Assembly (NCBI GenBank): GCA_027031765.1
Contig: JALVPN010000210.1
Span: 1 to 8,608, forward strand
DNA: 8,608 bases
Direction of reading: 5' to 3'
Source of the DNA: Promethearchaeota archaeon
GTDB taxonomy: Archaea; Asgardarchaeota; Thorarchaeia; Thorarchaeales; Thorarchaeaceae
Shown here: piece by piece, positions 1 through 8,608 of the stretch
Layout: every line of letters starts with the position of its first letter
Position numbering within the stretch: the first letter of the stretch is position 1
Made by a program: the position numbers and the translations under genes
The notes under the pieces: generated by a model
What the model saw: only the letters and a program-made list of their open reading frames with translations
What the model was told of the DNA's origin: nothing
Databases searched by the model: none

Positions 1-173
1 TCATCTCTCAGGCCTTCCAGTGTGTACTGTGCACGTATCTCTCCAAACACACGTTGCTCGAACTCGGTGAACTCGGACCGAGAGCCCGTCACCTCAATAC
101 TGCTCAGGACGGCAATGGAGGCCCCTATTCCTTCACGGTCAACACGGAACTCTAGTTGTGGTGTACGTGTCAT
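1..173 (-). CDS. B3/4 (PheRS beta-like, tRNA-binding/editing) domain protein, N-terminal part, runs off the window edge
   Basis: Not in the ORF track. Manual translation from ATG at 173: MTRTPQLEFRVDREGIGASIAVLSSIEVTGSRSEFTEFEQRVFGEIRAQYTLEGLRD, open to position 1, with a GGTGG SD about 9 nt upstream. The ending EIRAQYTLEGLRD matches the remembered N-terminal pattern of archaeal stand-alone B3/4 proteins (..YTLExLKDDPxVRAYR..DPTK). The diagnostic core lies outside the window. Confidence 0.65.
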   Translation of the reverse strand, partial: MTRTPQLEFRVDREGIGASIAVLSSIEVTGSRSEFTEFEQRVFGEIRAQYTLEGLRD

Positions 174-393
174 CGGCTGTCGCCACCAGTCCAGTGTGGG
201 GCCCGGCCCTTCACGGCACCGGCCCTCTGACCTGGCATGTCGACCACTGCTGGGCCAGACTGTCGGGCGTGACGCTGTCCCAGGTCGCCGGTGCGTACGG
301 GTCACGCCACGGACACTTGCCCGGGCACTTTTCCCGGTTGCGGACAGGTGCTCGGCGCCCGACGCCAGACGCCCGCTGGCCGTACCCGTCGTC

Positions 394-744
394 TTACCGC
401 TTGTCGAGGAGCGGGATCACGCAGATGAATGTGAAGTCTTCGGTGCCCTCACGGTTGTCGTAGCCGTGTGGCGCCTCTGATGGTATGAAGACCACATCGT
501 CCTTCTTCGCTACGCGGCCGGCCATGTCCCCGAGGAGCTTGGCCTGGCCGTTCAGCACGTAGATCTCATGCTCTTCTGGGTGATGGTGTTCTGGTATGAT
601 ACCTCCCGCCTTGATGTTGAACCAACGCATCGCGTAGGTCTTCGCCCCGGTGCGCCGGTCAATGAGCCAGCGCATCGTGGCCTTTTCTGCACCTGGCAGC
701 TCTACAGGTATCTCCTCACGTTCCGCGTAGTTCATCACGTACAT
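394..744 (-). CDS. Cupin-domain metalloprotein (TM1459-like, single-domain cupin)
   Basis: Cupin motif 1 GGIIPEHHHPEEHEIYVLNG and motif 2 DVVFIPSEAPHGYDN, plus C-terminal FICVIP. Start moved from 837 to ATG 744 (MYVMNY) because GGTGA (752-756) lies 7 nt upstream and the longer ORF runs through the AT-rich promoter. Confidence 0.9.
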   Translation of the reverse strand: MYVMNYAEREEIPVELPGAEKATMRWLIDRRTGAKTYAMRWFNIKAGGIIPEHHHPEEHEIYVLNGQAKLLGDMAGRVAKKDDVVFIPSEAPHGYDNREGTEDFTFICVIPLLDKR

Positions 745-787
745 GTCGTCGTCACCCAAGAAGTTTCCCGACCACACGTAGGTGGCC

Positions 788-797
788 GATATAATAG
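788..797 (-). promoter_or_regulatory. Putative TATA box for the cupin gene
   Basis: Minus strand reads CTATTATATC, an AT-rich island about 45 nt upstream of ATG 744. Confidence 0.5.
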
Positions 798-861
798 TCT
801 TAGGATATGATATGGCAGACTTGATGGGCAGTGGCATGCACTTCCCGTCGAGTGATAGACT

Positions 862-874
862 AGAAAGGTTAAAC
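862..874 (+). promoter_or_regulatory. BRE-TATA promoter for the Vps28-like gene
   Basis: AGAAAGGTTAAAC: purine-rich BRE followed by TTAAA, about 70 nt upstream of ATG 944. GGTGA SD at 935-939. Confidence 0.6.
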
Positions 875-943
875 TAGCCCTCCCGATACAGCACTCAGTG
901 ACAGTGTGGTGGACTGTACCTGAGAGCTATGGTTGGTGAGCCA

Positions 944-1471
944 ATGAGCGAGCAAGACACGTATCTCCGGGCCAAGCTGACGGACATCAATGTGGCTATC
1001 GAACGACTGACAGAGATGCTCAGCCGCATGATTGAGGTGATATCGAAGATCACGGATGTCCAGGAGGTCACCAGCGAGCTGGTGGTGGCAGTCGAGGCCA
1101 ACGGTGAGAAGCTAGATGAGGTACTGAGCATACTGAAGAGTGCCGGCGCTCCCAGCGTGAGGGCTGCACCGGAGCGCGGCCGCGCGGCGACCGCAGACAT
1201 GGGCATAGTCAGTTCCCTCCAGACACTCCTCGACACGCTCGAGTCGCAGGTCCGAGAAGGGGTCATTGCCAGCGACCTCGCAAAGAAGGTCGGTGATGCT
1301 GCTGACACCATGGAGCAGAAGATCGGGAGCGGGCCCCTTGTGGTCAAGATGAGACGATGGGTCCGCATACTCAGGACATACGGTCGTGTCGACCCAGTCT
1401 CTCCAGCCGATATCACGAAGCTCCGACAGGAGATCCGCGAGTGGAGCAGAGAACTGGCCATAAAGCGGTAG
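944..1471 (+). CDS. Coiled-coil protein with a C-terminal Vps28 (ESCRT-I) CTD-like four-helix bundle
   Basis: ATG 944 follows GGTGA (935-939); ATG 929 is an alternative start. Heptad region at about 977-1138, Ala/Pro/Arg linker, then a helical domain (1205-1456) resembling remembered yeast and human Vps28 C-terminal domains. The CDS itself is near-certain; the Vps28 assignment is a by-eye alignment. Confidence 0.7.
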   Translation: MSEQDTYLRAKLTDINVAIERLTEMLSRMIEVISKITDVQEVTSELVVAVEANGEKLDEVLSILKSAGAPSVRAAPERGRAATADMGIVSSLQTLLDTLESQVREGVIASDLAKKVGDAADTMEQKIGSGPLVVKMRRWVRILRTYGRVDPVSPADITKLRQEIREWSRELAIKR

Positions 1472-1811
1472 TCGCTCCAGAATGGAGTCCCGAGCACATG
1501 ACATGACCTGTCATCCCTTTCCATGCCGTGGCCCCGCGCAGGCAAAGACCCCTCATAGACCATGACACACACAACGCCGTGTGGTCGCCTGCCTGCCCGT
1601 ATGTGATATGGCGTCACCTTGTGGCCCTGCGCCGTCCCGGCCACTCCAGATACCCGGGCCTGTACCGGGGCCCCGCCGTCAGACCTTGGCGCCGGATGCA
1701 GCCGTGCCCTCCATTGCACCAGCCAGCCCCCATTCAGTCGCAGAGGGCCCCTGCAACATCCGAAACAGTCCTATTGCTCTGTGGCCACTACTCACTGTCT
1801 GGTGACCCACC

Positions 1812-3635
1812 TTGAAAGACCTGAAACGCCTCGTCCGTGCACTCCCCGACTCACCAGGGGTCTACATGTGGAAGGGCGTTGACGGGGAGGTCCTGTACGT
1901 GGGAAAGGCGAAGTCTCTCCGCAGGCGGGTCGCCTCGTACCTCCGACCGCAGGGCCGCGACCGCAAGACATCTGACCTCATGGCCTTGGCCCGTGACCTC
2001 GACACCATACTTACCCGGAGCGAGCGGGAGGCACTGTTACTGGAGGCCACACTCATCCGAAAGCACAGGCCCCGGTTCAACATTGCGCTCAAGGACGACA
2101 GGAGACATGCATGGATCCGTGTGGACATGACCGCTCCAGTGCCGAGCTTCCAGGTCACACGTGATGTGACACGTGACGGCGCCCGCTATTTTGGCCCATA
2201 CGGCAGCACCCGCCGCGTGGAGCGAATCATGGACACCGTCCGCAGGACAATGCCTGTTGCGACATGTGCCAGTCCCGAGTCCGTCAGACGTCCGTGCCTC
2301 GACCATCACCTGGGGCGCTGTGCAGCCCCGTGTGTGGGCAAGATATCCCACGAGGAGTACCGCCGCCTGGCAGAACAGATGTGCATGTACCTTGACGGCC
2401 GGACGGACGAGCTGATACGTGTGCTCCGGCAGATGATGACGGGGGCGGCTGCACGCATGGACTACGAGGCTGCTGCGGTCCTGCGTGACAGGATTGCAGA
2501 CATCGAGGCCATGACACGACACCAGCGGGTGTACAACCCAGAGGGCCCTGACCGTGATGTCCTGGGCATTGCCCGGGAGGGCGACGTGGCGGTCGTCGAA
2601 CTCCTGATGTTCAGGCATGGACGCCTGCTCGGTACCGACAGCTTCCCCATCGCATCCGGCCCTGACGTGGCTGATGCAGACATCCTGACCGCCTTCGTCG
2701 AACAGTTCTACTTCACCGTTCCCCGTGTGCCGTCTGAGATCGTGTTGCCCACTCCGGTGCCACAGATGGACGAGATGAGCGCATGGCTGGCTCATGAGGT
2801 GGGCCACGAGGTCCGCCTGCTTGCCGCCGACAATGACACACTGCATGACCTCGTGGACATGGCAAGTACCAATGCCCGTCACGCCCTTGGTAGGTGGCTG
2901 CTCCTACACGACGGCAAGGCAGCCGCTGTACACGCGGGTGTGCGGGCCCTCCGCGAAGCACTTGCCCTCCACAGAGCACCGGTGCACATCGAGGGTTTCG
3001 ACATCGCAGACATCCATGGTACTGATGCTACAGGCTCGTGTGTCGTCTTCAGGAATGGCGAGCCAGACCCGTCATCGTACAGGATGTTCAGGGTGCGTAC
3101 CGTGTCGGGGCCCGACGACTACGCCATGATGCGGGAGGTCGTACTCCGGAGGTACCGGGGCCTCCTGACCCGGGGCGGACAGCTCCCGGACCTGGTGCTG
3201 GTGGACGGCGGTCTCGGACAGCTCGGCGCTGCTATGGATGCCTTGCAGGTACTTGGACTTGACTACCTCCCAGTGGCAGCCCTCGCAAAGAAACACGAGA
3301 CCGTGTTCACAGCGGACAGGCGCGACGGTATCGTGCTCCCCGAGGGCTCGCCTGCACTCCGCCTGCTCCAACACATCCGGGACGAGGCCCACCGGTTTGC
3401 ACGGCGCTACCACCACAAGCTCAGGGCACAACGCGTTGCAGGTTCCGTCCTGGAAATGGTGCCTGGCATCGGTCCCCGGCGGCGTGCGGCACTGTTCAGG
3501 GCATTCGGTAGTGTTGATGGGGTGCGTCGTGCAAGTCTTGAGGAGCTGGCCTCGGTTGACGGTATGACCCTCCCTGTGGCACGCCGCCTGCGCGAGTGGC
3601 TCGATGCAGAGGAGTCCTCTCAGTCGCCGTCCTGA
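1812..3635 (+). CDS. uvrC: Excinuclease ABC subunit C
   Basis: TTG start with GGTGA SD at 1801-1805. GIY-YIG (PGVYMW..LYVGKAKSLRRRVASY, EALLLE, RFN), four-Cys region (CASPESVRRPCLDHHLGRCAAPC), UVR domain (MDYEAAAVLRDRI), RNase H-like domain (GFD, DDYAMMREV, LVDGGLGQL, LAK, IRDEAHRFA) and tandem HhH (VPGIGPRRR). 607 aa, full length. Confidence 0.97.
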   Translation: MKDLKRLVRALPDSPGVYMWKGVDGEVLYVGKAKSLRRRVASYLRPQGRDRKTSDLMALARDLDTILTRSEREALLLEATLIRKHRPRFNIALKDDRRHAWIRVDMTAPVPSFQVTRDVTRDGARYFGPYGSTRRVERIMDTVRRTMPVATCASPESVRRPCLDHHLGRCAAPCVGKISHEEYRRLAEQMCMYLDGRTDELIRVLRQMMTGAAARMDYEAAAVLRDRIADIEAMTRHQRVYNPEGPDRDVLGIAREGDVAVVELLMFRHGRLLGTDSFPIASGPDVADADILTAFVEQFYFTVPRVPSEIVLPTPVPQMDEMSAWLAHEVGHEVRLLAADNDTLHDLVDMASTNARHALGRWLLLHDGKAAAVHAGVRALREALALHRAPVHIEGFDIADIHGTDATGSCVVFRNGEPDPSSYRMFRVRTVSGPDDYAMMREVVLRRYRGLLTRGGQLPDLVLVDGGLGQLGAAMDALQVLGLDYLPVAALAKKHETVFTADRRDGIVLPEGSPALRLLQHIRDEAHRFARRYHHKLRAQRVAGSVLEMVPGIGPRRRAALFRAFGSVDGVRRASLEELASVDGMTLPVARRLREWLDAEESSQSPS

Positions 3636-3637
3636 CT

Positions 3638-5329
3638 TCACTCCTCACCCGTGCTGTCATCCCCCTGCGTGCCGTCCTCATCCTTGGCGGAGGGCGTGGC
3701 GTCACTTTCAGTCACCGTGTCCTCTTCAGGGCCCGTTTCCTCATGTGGGATCCCTTCGGACTCCGGGACGGCCCCACCCTCTGGTGGTGGCCTTGGCTCC
3801 TGTTCGAGCACTGGCGCAGGTTTTTCCGACTCTGGTGGTGGCGGCAGTTCGGATGTGGTCGTGTGTGGGGCGGGTGTCGTGGCGGGAGCGCGCACTGGAG
3901 TGGCCGGTGAGATGTTCTGTTCCTCGGGGATGGGCACTGGTGCCTCTTCCTTCTCCAGTGGGCCGATCTCCGAGATGATGGCCTCCAGTGGCACCGGTTC
4001 GCCAGCGGCCTCGAGTCCGAGGTACCTGCTACGTCCGTAGAGGCCGTAGACGGCAAGTCCGATAACTGTCAGGAGCGCACCCAGCTGGAGCGTGGTGGTA
4101 CTCATACTCGGGACAAGGAGCAGGCAGGTCGCCATCCCGATCAGTGGTATTGCTGGGTAGAGACGCGACTTGAACGTGCCAGGTACACTGAGCCCTTTCT
4201 CGCGCAGGAATATCACCGAGATGTTCACAATTGACAGGCCCACGAGGTACCCGAAACCTGACAGTGATGCTACCAGCTCCACGTTCCCCGACGATGCAAA
4301 GATGCAGACCATGATGAGCGTAAAGACGAGTGCTGGCACGGGCGTCCTCAGTCTTGGGTGTACGGACTCGAGGACGGTCGGGAAGAACCTGTCCCTACCC
4401 AGGGAGTATGCCACCCTCGCCGATGCGAGGAACGTGGCGTTCAGGGCAGCATAGTTTGAGGCCGCCATGCCTGCAAGTCCGAGATAGTATGCCCCCGGGC
4501 CCATTATGACACCGAAGACATCCGAGATGGGTACGTGCGAGTCCTGTACAAAGCTGTACCCACGCACCCCCACTATTACCAGTGCCGCGGCCATGTAGAT
4601 TGCGGTGGCTATGAACAGAGTGAGCATGATTGCACGTGGGATGTTCTTTGCAGGGTCCTTTATCTCCTCGCTGGCAGTCGTTATCAACTCGAAGCCCACG
4701 AATGAGATGTAGATGAACGACACTGTGGCCATGAACTCGTGGAGCCCGGCCCCCTCCTTCATCCAGGGCGTGAGGTTCTCAGGCTGTACAAAGAACAGCC
4801 CGATGGCGATGAACGAGAACAGGACGAACGACTGGGCGATGTTCAGGAACCCCAGTACGCCGGCGACGCCCTTTATGCTGACCAGGTTCGTGATGAAGGT
4901 GATGACAATGAACACGATTGCAATCATCCCGATGGTGTGCTCGGTGGCCCCCGGGATGAACACAGCAAGGGTGTGTGCGACCGCAAGGGCATACAGTCCA
5001 CACGCAACAATGTTACCGATGAGGAGGAACCAGCCTGTGAGGAATGCGGGGAACCCGCCAATCGTGTCATGTGCAAAGGTGTACCCCCCACCCTGTTTCG
5101 GTATCGAACAGGCGAGTTCGGCGTAGTTGATGGCCGTGAAGACTGTAACAATCCCTGTGGCCAGGAACGCGAACACCACCGCTGGGCCGACCATGCCAGC
5201 CGCAGTGCCCGAAATCACGTAGATGCCGCCACCAAGCATCGCCCCCAGGCCAATGTTAGTAGCGCCAACAAGTCCCAGTCGACGGGCGAACTTGCCTTCC
5301 GGCTCCTCGCCCCAGACCGCCTCAACCAA
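3638..5329 (-). CDS. APC-superfamily amino-acid permease (12 TM) with a 131-aa acidic Pro-rich C-terminal tail
   Basis: TTG start with AGGTGG SD at 5336-5341. TM1 IGLGAMLGGGIY, TM6-loop SFVGFELITTASEEIKDPAKNIPRAI, ARVAYSLGRD, HPRLRTP. Twelve hydrophobic segments counted by eye. Confidence 0.93.
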   Translation of the reverse strand: MVEAVWGEEPEGKFARRLGLVGATNIGLGAMLGGGIYVISGTAAGMVGPAVVFAFLATGIVTVFTAINYAELACSIPKQGGGYTFAHDTIGGFPAFLTGWFLLIGNIVACGLYALAVAHTLAVFIPGATEHTIGMIAIVFIVITFITNLVSIKGVAGVLGFLNIAQSFVLFSFIAIGLFFVQPENLTPWMKEGAGLHEFMATVSFIYISFVGFELITTASEEIKDPAKNIPRAIMLTLFIATAIYMAAALVIVGVRGYSFVQDSHVPISDVFGVIMGPGAYYLGLAGMAASNYAALNATFLASARVAYSLGRDRFFPTVLESVHPRLRTPVPALVFTLIMVCIFASSGNVELVASLSGFGYLVGLSIVNISVIFLREKGLSVPGTFKSRLYPAIPLIGMATCLLLVPSMSTTTLQLGALLTVIGLAVYGLYGRSRYLGLEAAGEPVPLEAIISEIGPLEKEEAPVPIPEEQNISPATPVRAPATTPAPHTTTSELPPPPESEKPAPVLEQEPRPPPEGGAVPESEGIPHEETGPEEDTVTESDATPSAKDEDGTQGDDSTGEE

Positions 5330-5402
5330 CTGTGGCCACCTGCCTAGAGCAGATGGCCGTCCTTACGGGGGCCATTGTGATTTGGAGCGTGCCAGTGCCC
5401 CT

Positions 5403-5417
5403 CTTTTGAAGGTTTTG
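5403..5417 (-). promoter_or_regulatory. BRE-TATA-like promoter for the permease
   Basis: Minus strand reads CAAAACCTTCAAAAG, close to the archaeal BRE + TTTAAA pattern. Implies a transcription start near 5380. Confidence 0.5.
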
Positions 5418-5486
5418 TATGTGCTTGTAGAGGCGTCCAATGCGCATCTGGGAGCCCTCCTGACCCCGAGATACAGTACCCCGAGA

Positions 5487-5494
5487 CTTAAATT
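5487..5494 (+). promoter_or_regulatory. Putative TATA box for the ferredoxin gene
   Basis: CTTAAATT, about 65 nt upstream of ATG 5557. Confidence 0.5.
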
Positions 5495-5556
5495 GAGACC
5501 CGTAGGCATGCGGCACCGGACAACATTTCTCGTGTCCACAAGGCGAGTGATAAACG

Positions 5557-5763
5557 ATGATGTGGAAGGTCAACGTAGAGAAGTGCACAGCATGTGGTAC
5601 GTGTGCCGATGTCTGCCCGGTAGACCCGCCGCTCTATGTCATTGAGCCCTACGGTGATACTGGCGAAGAGAAGGCAGTCTATCAGGAGGACCGTGCAGAC
5701 GAGTGCACGGAGTGCTATGCCTGCGTCGACTCGTGCCCCGAAGGCGCTATTGAGGAGGCCTAG
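5557..5763 (+). CDS. 2[4Fe-4S] dicluster ferredoxin
   Basis: Two CxxCxxCxxxCP motifs (CTACGTCADVCP and CTECYACVDSCP), acidic, 68 aa, ends GAIEEA. Start is ATG 5557 or 5560. Confidence 0.95.
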   Translation: MMWKVNVEKCTACGTCADVCPVDPPLYVIEPYGDTGEEKAVYQEDRADECTECYACVDSCPEGAIEEA

Positions 5764-5845
5764 TGTGGTCCTCACCAGTAGGTCTGGAGGGCGAACAGGA
5801 GCAGGCCGGACAGTCGTATCACTTTCAGTCAGCAGGACAGGGATG

Positions 5846-5885
5846 CCAGCCGGTCATCCCTGTCACTATGTTTTTCTCCCACACG
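5846..5885 (+). terminator. Perfect 10-bp hairpin followed by a T-run (terminator-like)
   Basis: GACAGGGATG (5846-5855), 9-nt loop, CATCCCTGTC (5865-5874), then ACTATGTTTTT. About 80 nt downstream of the ferredoxin stop. Confidence 0.55.
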
Positions 5886-5978
5886 GCATCTGTCCACAGT
5901 CAGACAGTGCGGCAGACCTGACCGGGGCTCACCGCACCCAGCCCTCTGAGTGATCCGACTGACAGACCCGTCCACACC

Positions 5979-6242
5979 TCACCGTTTCCTGTATGGCTCC
6001 CCGAACACCTCATTGAAGAAGGCCTCAAGGCTACTGTCGTCAAGGATCACCTTCACCATGGCGAAGGCGTCCTCTCTGGGGTCGAAGCTCCCAGTGACCT
6101 TGACAATGCCTGTACCAGACCCTTCGTCCGCCATCAGAATCGTCTTCTCCTCGTCCACCTCTTCGTGGAGGTCAAACCTCTCCCGGACACGGGTCATCTT
6201 CGCACGGTACTCGTCGGGGCTCACCCGATAGAACAGTTTCAT
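5979..6242 (-). CDS. Small alpha/beta hypothetical protein (87 aa)
   Basis: Protein-like composition with amphipathic helices and strands (MKLFYRVSPDEY..EEVDEEKTILM..AMVKVILDDSSLEAFFNEVFGEPY). GGTG 5 nt upstream of the ATG. Fills the gap between the ferredoxin and PLD genes. No family recognised. Confidence 0.8.
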   Translation of the reverse strand: MKLFYRVSPDEYRAKMTRVRERFDLHEEVDEEKTILMADEGSGTGIVKVTGSFDPREDAFAMVKVILDDSSLEAFFNEVFGEPYRKR

Positions 6243-6281
6243 GACAGCACCGCCGGTATCCCCGTGCTACGCTATGGATTC

Positions 6282-6288
6282 ATTTATC
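6282..6288 (+). promoter_or_regulatory. Possible TATA element in the divergent hypothetical/PLD spacer
   Basis: ATTTATC is the only AT-rich patch in the 85-nt spacer, about 40 nt upstream of TTG 6328. Confidence 0.35.
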
Positions 6289-6327
6289 TTCGCTGGTCGT
6301 GAACACACATACTCTGGAGGCAGAATA

Positions 6328-8475
6328 TTGTCAAGAACCGACATGACCCTTGGCGTAGTCACAGTCATCATGCTCGTCACTCTAGTCTCGGTGCCAGTGG
6401 TGCCCGTGGGTACGCCGCATACCGGTGTGCTTGCTGTCAGTCAGCAGCATGTCACATCAGCGTTCCCATTCCAGACCTTCCAGCGTGACATGAACGTCAC
6501 GACCTTCGTATCACCCGACGGGAGCCGCGACGCCCTCTGGCAACTGCTCCTCAGTGCACGGCAGAGCATCTACGTGGAGGTCTTCGGGATCAACAACCCC
6601 TACATACTGGACCTCATCCATGAGATACACGACGCCCGGCCCGGACTGGACATCAAGTTCCTGTTGGGATGGAACAGCATCGGCTACTACAGTACGAACG
6701 ACTACGTGGCAAACAACCTGACACAGCTGGGCATCCCGGTGCGCTGGACCAGCGACACGGAGTTCACCTACGCACACCAGAAGTTCGTGATAATCGACAA
6801 CAAGACGACAGTGGTACACGCGGGTAACTGGGCCAAGACCAGCTTCCCAGAGGCCGGCAAGAAGGCGAACCGTGAGTGGAGCATCGCGATGACGGACGGG
6901 GTGGTCACCGCCTTCTACAGGGGGGTCTTCGACTACGACTGGGACAACGGTATCCCGTACGACCCGGTCGCCCACGGCACCGGCTCTCCACTGTCCTACA
7001 GTGAGACGTCGAGCACCTACCCGCGTCCGTTCAGTGAGCCCGGTCACTTCAGCGGGGACATGCGCGTCACGCCTGTCCTCAGTCCCGATACGAGCCTGCA
7101 GGGCATCCTGTACTGCATCCGGGCCGCCCGCTACACGTTGGACATCCAGATACCCTACTTTACGAACTACGGTGACTCCGGCGCTGTCGACCAGATTGTC
7201 GACGAGATAGTCGCAGCAAAGCAGCGCGGTGTCACAGTACGTGTCATTACCGAGGAGGGCGCGAAACCGGACGTCGAAGCCGTGGCCCAAGAGCTCGGTA
7301 GCCACGGGATCCCGGTGGTGTACCAGGACGAGCGCTGGTTCAGTGCAGAGCACAACAAGGGCATAATCGTTGATGGGCGCACTGTGATGATTAGCAGCAT
7401 CAACTTCAGTGATGGGAGCATCACTGAGAACCGCGAGGCTGGTGTGATTGTGGAGCACTCAGGGGTCGCAGCGTGGTACCAGGATGTCTACGACTTCGAC
7501 TGGGGGATTGGTGACGCTGGCAACAGCGACGAGGTCAACCTCTATTGGACACCGAACATCCCCACGAGCTCTGACACCATCAACGTCACTGTGTACGGCC
7601 ACATGCTCTACCCAGACATCGAGGAGGTGGTGCTGGGAGTCAAGATAGGCAGTGGCGCGTGGACGAACCACACGATAACCCCCAACGTCTACGACTCGGA
7701 CGAGGGTGACCCGGAGAACTACTTCTATGAGATTGCGCCACAGCCTGACGGCACCAACATCACGGTCGTGGCATACGTGCGTGCCAACGGCGTCTGGCAC
7801 AAGAGCCACGAGATGACGCTCTTCGTCCGCAACAGCATGGGCGCGGCAGTCACCGTTGACCACCCGGATGACATCGTGTACGAGTACGGTAGCACGGGCC
7901 ATTCGATAACGTGGACGCCGTCAGCCGCCAATGCATCCCACTACGTCGTCACACGCAACGGCACTGTGGTCGCCTCTGGCGCATGGGACGGTTCCGCGGT
8001 AACGCTGAGCGTCGAGGGTCTGGGCCTCGGTACCTACGTGTACGTGCTGTTCGTCAACGAGACCGGTGGTGCAAGTGCGACTGATACGGTCACCGTGCGT
8101 GTGGTCGACACCACGCCGCCGGACATCACCGGCCCCGCCGACCTGTGCGTCACGAGGGGTACCACAGGACACAGGCGCACGTGGAATGTCAGCGACCCGT
8201 GCCCGGCCAACTACGTGATACTCCTCGACGGAGAAGAGGTTGACAGTGGCTCGTGGGTCTCGGGCGAGCTGACCCTCGACCTCGACACGCTTGCCCTGGC
8301 CACCGGGGAGCATACACTCCTGCTGACAGTGTGGGACTCAAGTGGCAACAGCGCGACCGACTCCGTCAACATCACTGTCCAGCCGTCCATGATGGACATC
8401 GCCATCTATGTTGCCATCGCCGTAGTCGGAGTGGTGGTGGCACTGGTAGTGATGAAGATGAAGAAGGGGCGGTAG
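6328..8475 (+). CDS. Secreted, C-terminally membrane-anchored phospholipase D-superfamily protein (two HKD motifs) with Ig-like domains
   Basis: HQKFVIID..AGNW and HNKGIIVD..SSINFS, each followed by NRE. N-terminal hydrophobic signal (TLGVVTVIMLVTLVSVPVV) and C-terminal TM plus basic stop (IAIYVAIAVVGVVVALVVMKMKKGR). Start moved from ATG 6241, which overlaps the start of the divergent gene, to TTG 6328, 7 nt after GGAGG (6316-6320). ATG 6343 is an alternative. Confidence 0.9.
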   Translation: MSRTDMTLGVVTVIMLVTLVSVPVVPVGTPHTGVLAVSQQHVTSAFPFQTFQRDMNVTTFVSPDGSRDALWQLLLSARQSIYVEVFGINNPYILDLIHEIHDARPGLDIKFLLGWNSIGYYSTNDYVANNLTQLGIPVRWTSDTEFTYAHQKFVIIDNKTTVVHAGNWAKTSFPEAGKKANREWSIAMTDGVVTAFYRGVFDYDWDNGIPYDPVAHGTGSPLSYSETSSTYPRPFSEPGHFSGDMRVTPVLSPDTSLQGILYCIRAARYTLDIQIPYFTNYGDSGAVDQIVDEIVAAKQRGVTVRVITEEGAKPDVEAVAQELGSHGIPVVYQDERWFSAEHNKGIIVDGRTVMISSINFSDGSITENREAGVIVEHSGVAAWYQDVYDFDWGIGDAGNSDEVNLYWTPNIPTSSDTINVTVYGHMLYPDIEEVVLGVKIGSGAWTNHTITPNVYDSDEGDPENYFYEIAPQPDGTNITVVAYVRANGVWHKSHEMTLFVRNSMGAAVTVDHPDDIVYEYGSTGHSITWTPSAANASHYVVTRNGTVVASGAWDGSAVTLSVEGLGLGTYVYVLFVNETGGASATDTVTVRVVDTTPPDITGPADLCVTRGTTGHRRTWNVSDPCPANYVILLDGEEVDSGSWVSGELTLDLDTLALATGEHTLLLTVWDSSGNSATDSVNITVQPSMMDIAIYVAIAVVGVVVALVVMKMKKGR
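7852..8379 (+). repeat. Two tandem ~90-aa Ig-like repeats within the PLD protein
   Basis: TVDHPDDIVYEYGSTGHSITW..YVVTRNG..SGAW..LG.GTY..SATDTVTVRV versus DITGPADLCVTRGTTGHRRTW..YVILLDG..SGSW..LA.GEH..SATDSVNITV. Period is 270 nt (7852 and 8122). Confidence 0.85.
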
Positions 8476-8579
8476 ACAACCGACCGGCCCGTCCAATACA
8501 CGGCATCGTAGGTCAGCTGTGTGGGCCTGCCAGGCATGGTGCGGGCTTGGAGGGGCGGGGCGGCCCCCGGGCTGTTGGG

Positions 8580-8601
8580 CCCTCCTCCCCCTCCCCACCC
8601 C
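8580..8601 (-). other. Canonical G-quadruplex-forming motif
   Basis: Minus strand reads GGGG-T-GGGG-A-GGGGG-AGGA-GGG: four runs of at least 3 G with short loops. Confidence 0.5.
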
Positions 8602-8608
8602 ACCACCA

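Follow-up and report, generated by a model that had tools for sequence, protein, structure and literature searches.

In an 8,608-nt stretch of Thorarchaeota DNA (contig JALVPN010000210.1 of GenBank assembly GCA_027031765.1, positions 1 to 8,608; hereafter the window), the open reading frame (ORF) at 929..1471 on the plus strand encodes a small protein that joins a coiled-coil N-terminus to a four-helix C-terminal bundle. The bundle resembles the C-terminal domain (CTD) of Vps28, a subunit of the endosomal sorting complex ESCRT-I. We found about 179 close homologues, all annotated as 'hypothetical', and every named one came from a Thorarchaeota metagenome-assembled genome. The ORF comprises 180 aa if read from the ATG at 929. 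However, nearly all homologues in the family alignment (A1) start with MSEEDTY, which corresponds to M6 of the ORF, and the profile match of the family in its own genome begins at 944. Because the homologues begin at M6 and a Shine-Dalgarno-like GGTGAG (935-940) sits 4 nt before the second of the two in-frame ATGs (944-946; the element as a whole is 935..946, +), translation probably starts at 944, which yields a product of 175 aa. We refer to this protein as paralogue A and number its residues from the ATG at 929.

The AlphaFold2 (AF2) model of the full-length protein, read together with A1, divides it into three parts. The first is a long helix, aa 6-72 (944..1144, +), which presumably serves as a coiled-coil oligomerisation stalk. 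Conservation is high over the first ~35 residues, where T11, Y12, R14, A15, K16, L17, I20, I24, R26, T28, L31, R33, M34 and I35 are invariant in A1. Pfam searches on this helix returned generic coiled-coil noise only, while its N-terminal motif is shared with a second Thorarchaeota protein, paralogue B (hhalign, 98%). The helix is followed by a flexible linker rich in Ala, Pro and Gly, aa 73-85 (1145..1183, +), which varies in both length and sequence (its A1 columns are unconserved) and is disordered in the model, with a pLDDT <50 at aa 73-88. The remainder, aa 86-180 (1184..1468, +), forms the Vps28-C-like four-helix bundle, a designation that rests on AF2, Foldseek, VIA-align, ESM Atlas and hhalign. 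Its helices (all +) are H1 (aa 86-107, 1184-1249), H2 (aa 114-132, 1268-1324), H3 (aa 136-149, 1334-1375), which carries the invariant W144 and L148, and H4 (aa 159-179, 1403-1465), which carries the invariant W172. When folded alone from 54 aligned sequences of paralogues A and B (alignment A2), the bundle reached a pLDDT of 89.9 and a pTM of 0.81.

An earlier interpretation made from the DNA letters without database searches (the sequence-only reading) had proposed a hidden four-helix bundle of the Vps28 CTD type in this protein. The peptides that it quoted are present in the translation of 929-1468 (+), and the region that it singled out, aa 93-176, corresponds to nt 1205-1456. Structure searches bore the proposal out. 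In the AF2 model, the C-terminal part folds as a four-helix bundle of the Vps28 CTD type, and in a Foldseek search of the PDB with the bundle model, Vps28 CTDs occupied ranks 1, 2, 3 and 6 (TMq 0.72 to 2j9w_A; TMq 0.77 to 2j9v, with a root-mean-square deviation of 2.2 Å over 89 columns). The full-length model likewise placed 2j9w first, and the best match of the bundle model by VIA-align was also to Vps28 C-terminal domains. An ESM Atlas search recovered two eukaryotic PF03997 clusters (TM 0.73-0.76) alongside multidomain proteins from Asgard archaea, as well as CAS_C, and an ESM feature search returned solely the protein's own or a similar Asgard cluster (0.77). MIT domains are three-helix bundles, whereas the model has four helices. 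The best structural match is the Vps28 CTD and neither MIT nor another named bundle, so that the outcome that the sequence-only reading had said would tell against it did not occur.

Sequence comparison points in the same direction. As a reference, 30 Asgard Vps28 proteins were taken from the matches of a genome search with PF03997, and a 17-sequence alignment (A4) served as a second set. Comparison of family A with the 30 Asgard Vps28 proteins by hhalign aligned CTD to CTD over 94 collinear columns (P 6.5e-4, score 32.8, probability 28%). Reversing the query or the template (n=2) gave scores of 14-16, and 120 block-shuffled templates gave a maximum of 28.8, so that 0/120 reached 32.8. Because the score tops all 122 controls, the resemblance to Vps28 exceeds chance. 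When A2, which combines the CTDs of both paralogues A and B, was compared with A4 by hhalign, the result was P 2.3e-3 (probability 13%), and the A4 profile in turn matched the Xenopus Vps28 CTD 2j9w with an E of 4.5e-12. Chaining these alignments (family to Asgard Vps28 to 2j9w) places IVSSLQTLLD on IVSLFITVMD, K119 on a conserved Pro and W144 on a conserved Trp, which reproduces in helices 1, 2 and 3 the register that the sequence-only reading had drawn by eye. Furthermore, D102, W144, L148 and W172, three of them invariant in the family and one nearly so, align with the invariant Asgard Vps28 columns D143, W187, L191 and W215. Identity to Vps28 CTDs (the C-terminal half of PF03997; 2J9U, 2J9V, 2J9W, 2G3K) is about 10-16%, with no Pfam match. 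In our assessment, the bundle is quite probably a distant homologue of Vps28-C.

The protein has relatives within its own genome. Searches with the CTD profile typically found three paralogues (A, B and C) per Thorarchaeota genome. In the host genome (G000), A lies on the window's contig (C210), B is split over two contig ends (C121:1-558, −, and C94:1-270, +; the gene is cut by the contig end) and C lies on C31 (L070:1474-2586, −; 370 aa). An exhaustive profile search with the family yielded few representatives, the distant ones of which define paralogue B. Paralogue B (e.g., TXT55170.1, P0131-P0254) is a Thorarchaeota protein of 214-275 aa that is homologous to A over its full length (hhalign 98%, E 2e-13). 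The two share the N-terminal motif, the linker and the bundle, but in B the linker is longer, the Trp of helix 4 is missing and GTPase genes flank the locus. Paralogue C (333-370 aa; also at L058:597-1595) has a C-terminal bundle of the same type, without the helix-3 Trp, preceded by a coiled coil of great length.

Paralogue B and a set of fusion proteins connect this bundle to small GTPases. At all four full loci (L048, L049, L056 and L057), the gene for B has a divergent Ras/Arf-like GTPase gene on one side and, on the other, a convergent CBS gene plus a second GTPase gene. A hypothetical gene of ~180 aa stands beside the divergent GTPase gene at three of these four loci. In the host genome only the upstream side of the B locus is assembled, and it carries a Ras-family GTPase gene and the ~180-aa gene. 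In two other Asgard families, proteins of ~375-383 aa (L060:1208-2356, −; L064:634-1758, +) combine an N-terminal domain of ~115 aa with an Arf-like GTPase (matched by Pfam Arf at E 1e-21 to 1e-24) and a C-terminal region matching bundle helices 2-4. These fusions have helices 2-4 in common with paralogue A, while the coiled coil is replaced by the N-terminal domain and the GTPase. The repeated association of the bundle with Ras/Arf-like GTPases, both as neighbours and as fusions, is the most useful new lead from this analysis and supplies candidate partners.

Together, these data suggest that paralogue A belongs to a family of small, adaptor-like proteins spread across Asgard archaea, in which a conserved long helix at the N-terminus leads through a disordered linker to a C-terminal four-helix bundle that is likely a distant Vps28-C homologue, a reading to which we assign a probability of roughly 60%. 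In such a protein, the N-terminal helices would come together as a dimeric or trimeric stalk, and the linkers would let two or three Vps28-C-like bundles extend outward. Each bundle could then dock a partner via a conserved face around W144, L148, Y151 and W172, and this partner would most likely be a component of the membrane-trafficking machinery. The neighbourhood of paralogue B and the GTPase fusions suggest as a first candidate a small GTPase of the Ras/Arf family, or a regulator of one; by analogy with Vps28-C, ESCRT-II may be a second. Prediction of a complex between the bundle (A2) and the genome's own Vps22 (A3) gave a score of 0.00, which is no answer and speaks neither for nor against binding.

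Several observations weigh against this adaptor reading. The Foldseek E-values of the Vps28 matches are weak (0.04-0.5), and in VIA-align the HPt bundles of CheA score level with the Vps28 CTD. The hhalign comparison was run without a secondary-structure term at low Neff (effective number of sequences) and gave a probability of just 28%, a signal that would not be significant at database-wide scale. Paralogue B alone showed no hhalign signal against Vps28 (P 0.42), and sequence and profile searches of the PDB returned coiled-coil noise only and no Vps28. Finally, GTPase linkage is not conserved for paralogue A itself, being present in 1/3 other contexts and there 2-3 kb away. On a rival reading, the domain would be a generic up-down four-helix bundle that arose by convergence, with no common origin with Vps28, in a lineage-specific coiled-coil protein of unrelated function, perhaps a structural protein or the effector of a GTPase. 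In its favour, the scores of HPt, FAT/CAS_C, Psb27 and designed bundles come close to those of Vps28, no sequence-to-profile match to Vps28 appeared in Pfam or PDB searches, paralogue B gave no hhalign signal, and ESCRT context is absent. We nevertheless consider convergence unlikely, since the Vps28 CTD tops two independent aligners, the hhalign score exceeds every control in an alignment that spans the full domain with a single register, and the conserved family residues fall on invariant Vps28 CTD columns. As for HPt domains such as CheA P1 (1TQG), A2 contains no conserved His in the CTD (its invariant columns are G, W, Y and D), so that the phosphoacceptor on helix 2 that defines them is not conserved, and they appear at Foldseek rank 22 or lower, with no two-component context. 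A published observation also argues against convergence. In Fig. 6B and Table S3 of Makarova et al. (2024, mBio, PMC10936438), residues 155-235 of a Thorarchaeota relative, the 'BAR-SB' protein KXH73277.1, match 2J9U_A with an HHpred probability of 84%.

The preferred reading, a family of small adaptor-like proteins, can be extended to the GTPase fusions. All coiled-coil plus bundle proteins (A, B, C, the Odin-like and other relatives) and the fusions might form a single Asgard adaptor module coupled to small GTPases, with a bundle that was originally a GTPase-linked docking domain and an ESCRT-I Vps28 that arose from one copy fused to a steadiness box. We regard this as speculative and improbable as it stands. 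If true, it would imply that GTPase signalling of the Ras/Arf type and membrane remodelling of the ESCRT type were physically linked before eukaryogenesis.

The sequence-only reading had also suggested that a divergent copy could be an ancestral form of the ESCRT-I adaptor, but a hidden Vps28 or an ESCRT-I adaptor is not supported by our results. Paralogue A is not the ESCRT-I subunit Vps28, nor is it the orthologue of Vps28. The core (steadiness-box) hairpin, which assembles with Vps23 and Vps37, seats Vps28 in the head of ESCRT-I. We did not find this hairpin in paralogue A, for which AF2 gives one continuous helix over aa 6-72, and hhalign detected no similarity between its N-terminus and the N-terminal half of Asgard Vps28. 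Pfam VPS28 was absent at E <= 1 for P0001 and at E <= 0.1 among 27 members, none of which gave the match that the sequence-only reading had pointed to as a check. No ESCRT genes were seen near the family A gene, either in the window or at the three further Thorarchaeota loci compared (L051-L053). In comparison with Vps28, the partner domain of the bundle is a long single helix rather than the core hairpin, linkage to ESCRT genes is missing, and binding to ESCRT-II is a proposal made here by analogy. A steadiness box in the N-terminus, suggested by a sub-threshold Vps23_core match of P0097 (E 1.5e-5), was also considered and rejected: 26/27 members have no such match, and the single one stands amid generic coiled-coil noise.

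The ESCRT genes of this genome lie elsewhere, in a cluster on contig C117 (L054 5135-10969) that encodes Vps22, Vps25, Vps4, ESCRT-III and Znr-PH-CC-SB. The N-terminal segment of this Vps22 (L054:5135-5914) weakly matches positions 2-80, the N-terminal core, of Pfam VPS28 (E 0.09), in line with the published fusion of a steadiness box to Vps22, and Table S3 of PMC10936438 lists a match of the Thorarchaeota Vps22 N-terminus to PF03997 at 99%. A fission of Vps28, in which the steadiness box moved onto Vps22 while the CTD was kept in paralogue A, was rejected as a Thorarchaeota-specific event because steadiness-box-Vps22 fusions are reported across Asgard archaea (PMC10936438).

In our PF03997 genome search, canonical PF03997 was present in 195/301 Asgard genomes but in only 6/76 genomes of the window's family, where all matches were weak, and no canonical Vps28 was found in the host genome. 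The family A protein, by comparison, is present in 69/76 genomes of the window's family. This complementary pattern raises the possibility that paralogue A replaced Vps28 in Thorarchaeota as a displaced orthologue, and we rejected it on the basis of other Asgard genomes. The CTD profile detected related small coiled-coil plus bundle proteins in genome families f3, f7, f8, f15, f19 and f21, including an Odin-like family (4/4 genomes), and all of these families have canonical Vps28. The bundle proteins and Vps28 are encoded at different loci in the Odin-like genome G001, as they are in five genomes from f7, f8 and f19 that were checked. Because the relatives coexist with canonical Vps28 at other loci, they constitute a separate paralogous family rather than a displaced orthologue, and the complementary distribution is not general. 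That paralogue A is a true but highly divergent Thorarchaeota Vps28, with its N-terminal helix in a head or stalk alongside Znr-PH-CC-SB and the Vps22 steadiness box and its bundle recruiting ESCRT-II or ESCRT-III, would suit the distribution within the window's family, the Vps28-like order of helical N-terminus, linker and CTD, the P0097 match and the lack of a Thorarchaeota Vps28 among the constructs in Supplementary Data 1 of Hatano et al. 2022 (PMC9192718), yet it is very unlikely in light of the continuous N-terminal helix, the coexisting relatives, the missing ESCRT linkage and the Vps28-type steadiness box already carried by Thorarchaeota Vps22.

Dispersed Vps28-C domains in Asgard archaea are already known, and paralogue A adds one more protein with a Vps28-C-like domain. 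Some Asgard genomes encode Vps28-C as a free-standing protein, and the domain also occurs in many multidomain proteins, some of which carry longin domains that point to small GTPases (PMC10936438). Paralogue A shares the features of this dispersed class, namely a best match to the Vps28 CTD, an architecture other than that of ESCRT-I and an Asgard genome. The Vps28-CTD-like bundle that the sequence-only reading proposed stands, while the suggestion that it could be an unrecognised eukaryotic signature protein was overstated, since dispersed Vps28-C domains have been reported (PMC10936438). KXH73277.1 resembles paralogue A in its coiled-coil or BAR-like N-terminus, its C-terminal match to 2J9U_A, its phylum and its placement of Vps28-C outside ESCRT-I. 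It differs in length, with at least 235 aa against ~175 aa, and by size would fit paralogue B or C rather than A. The SMTZ orthologues of paralogue A (KXH74182.1 and KXH72234.1) were not found in the available parts of the supplementary files of PMC10936438.

These results temper the first interpretation of the locus: rather than an ESCRT-I subunit that had been missing, it holds one of several paralogous small proteins. Among Asgard lineages, ESCRT-I is most reduced in Thorarchaeota, with no ubiquitin, no UEV-Vps23 and, here, no canonical Vps28 found. Mapping where Vps28-C-like domains survive helps to trace the evolution of the connection between ESCRT-I and ESCRT-II.

The gene is divergent to a Cupin_2 gene (Pfam) at 394..837 (−), which is the sole neighbour conserved at other Thorarchaeota loci; the arrangement is identical in the three other genomes compared (L051, L052 and L053). 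The 91-bp divergent intergenic region (838..928) presumably holds the promoters of both genes, and its sequence includes an A/T-rich GGTTAAAC at about 867-874. In the same three genomes, the gene lies between the cupin gene and a hypothetical gene of ~105-115 aa, which is followed by a DHH (RecJ/Cdc45-like) gene. In the window, the downstream neighbour is instead a UvrC gene at 1812-3635 (Pfam), reached after a 340-bp gap (1472-1811), and downstream synteny is therefore broken.

Beyond the UvrC gene, the window encodes an amino-acid permease at 3638-5329 (−) with a low-complexity C-terminal tail of ~120 aa that is rich in Pro, Glu and Thr. The ORF at 6241-8475 (+) specifies a protein of 744 aa that contains two PLD-like (HKD) domains as well as PKD/Ig-like repeats, ends in a hydrophobic C-terminal anchor and is probably a surface-exposed enzyme of the phospholipase-D family. 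The beginning of this gene overlaps the end of an 87-aa ORF on the opposite strand (5979-6242) that belongs to no family.
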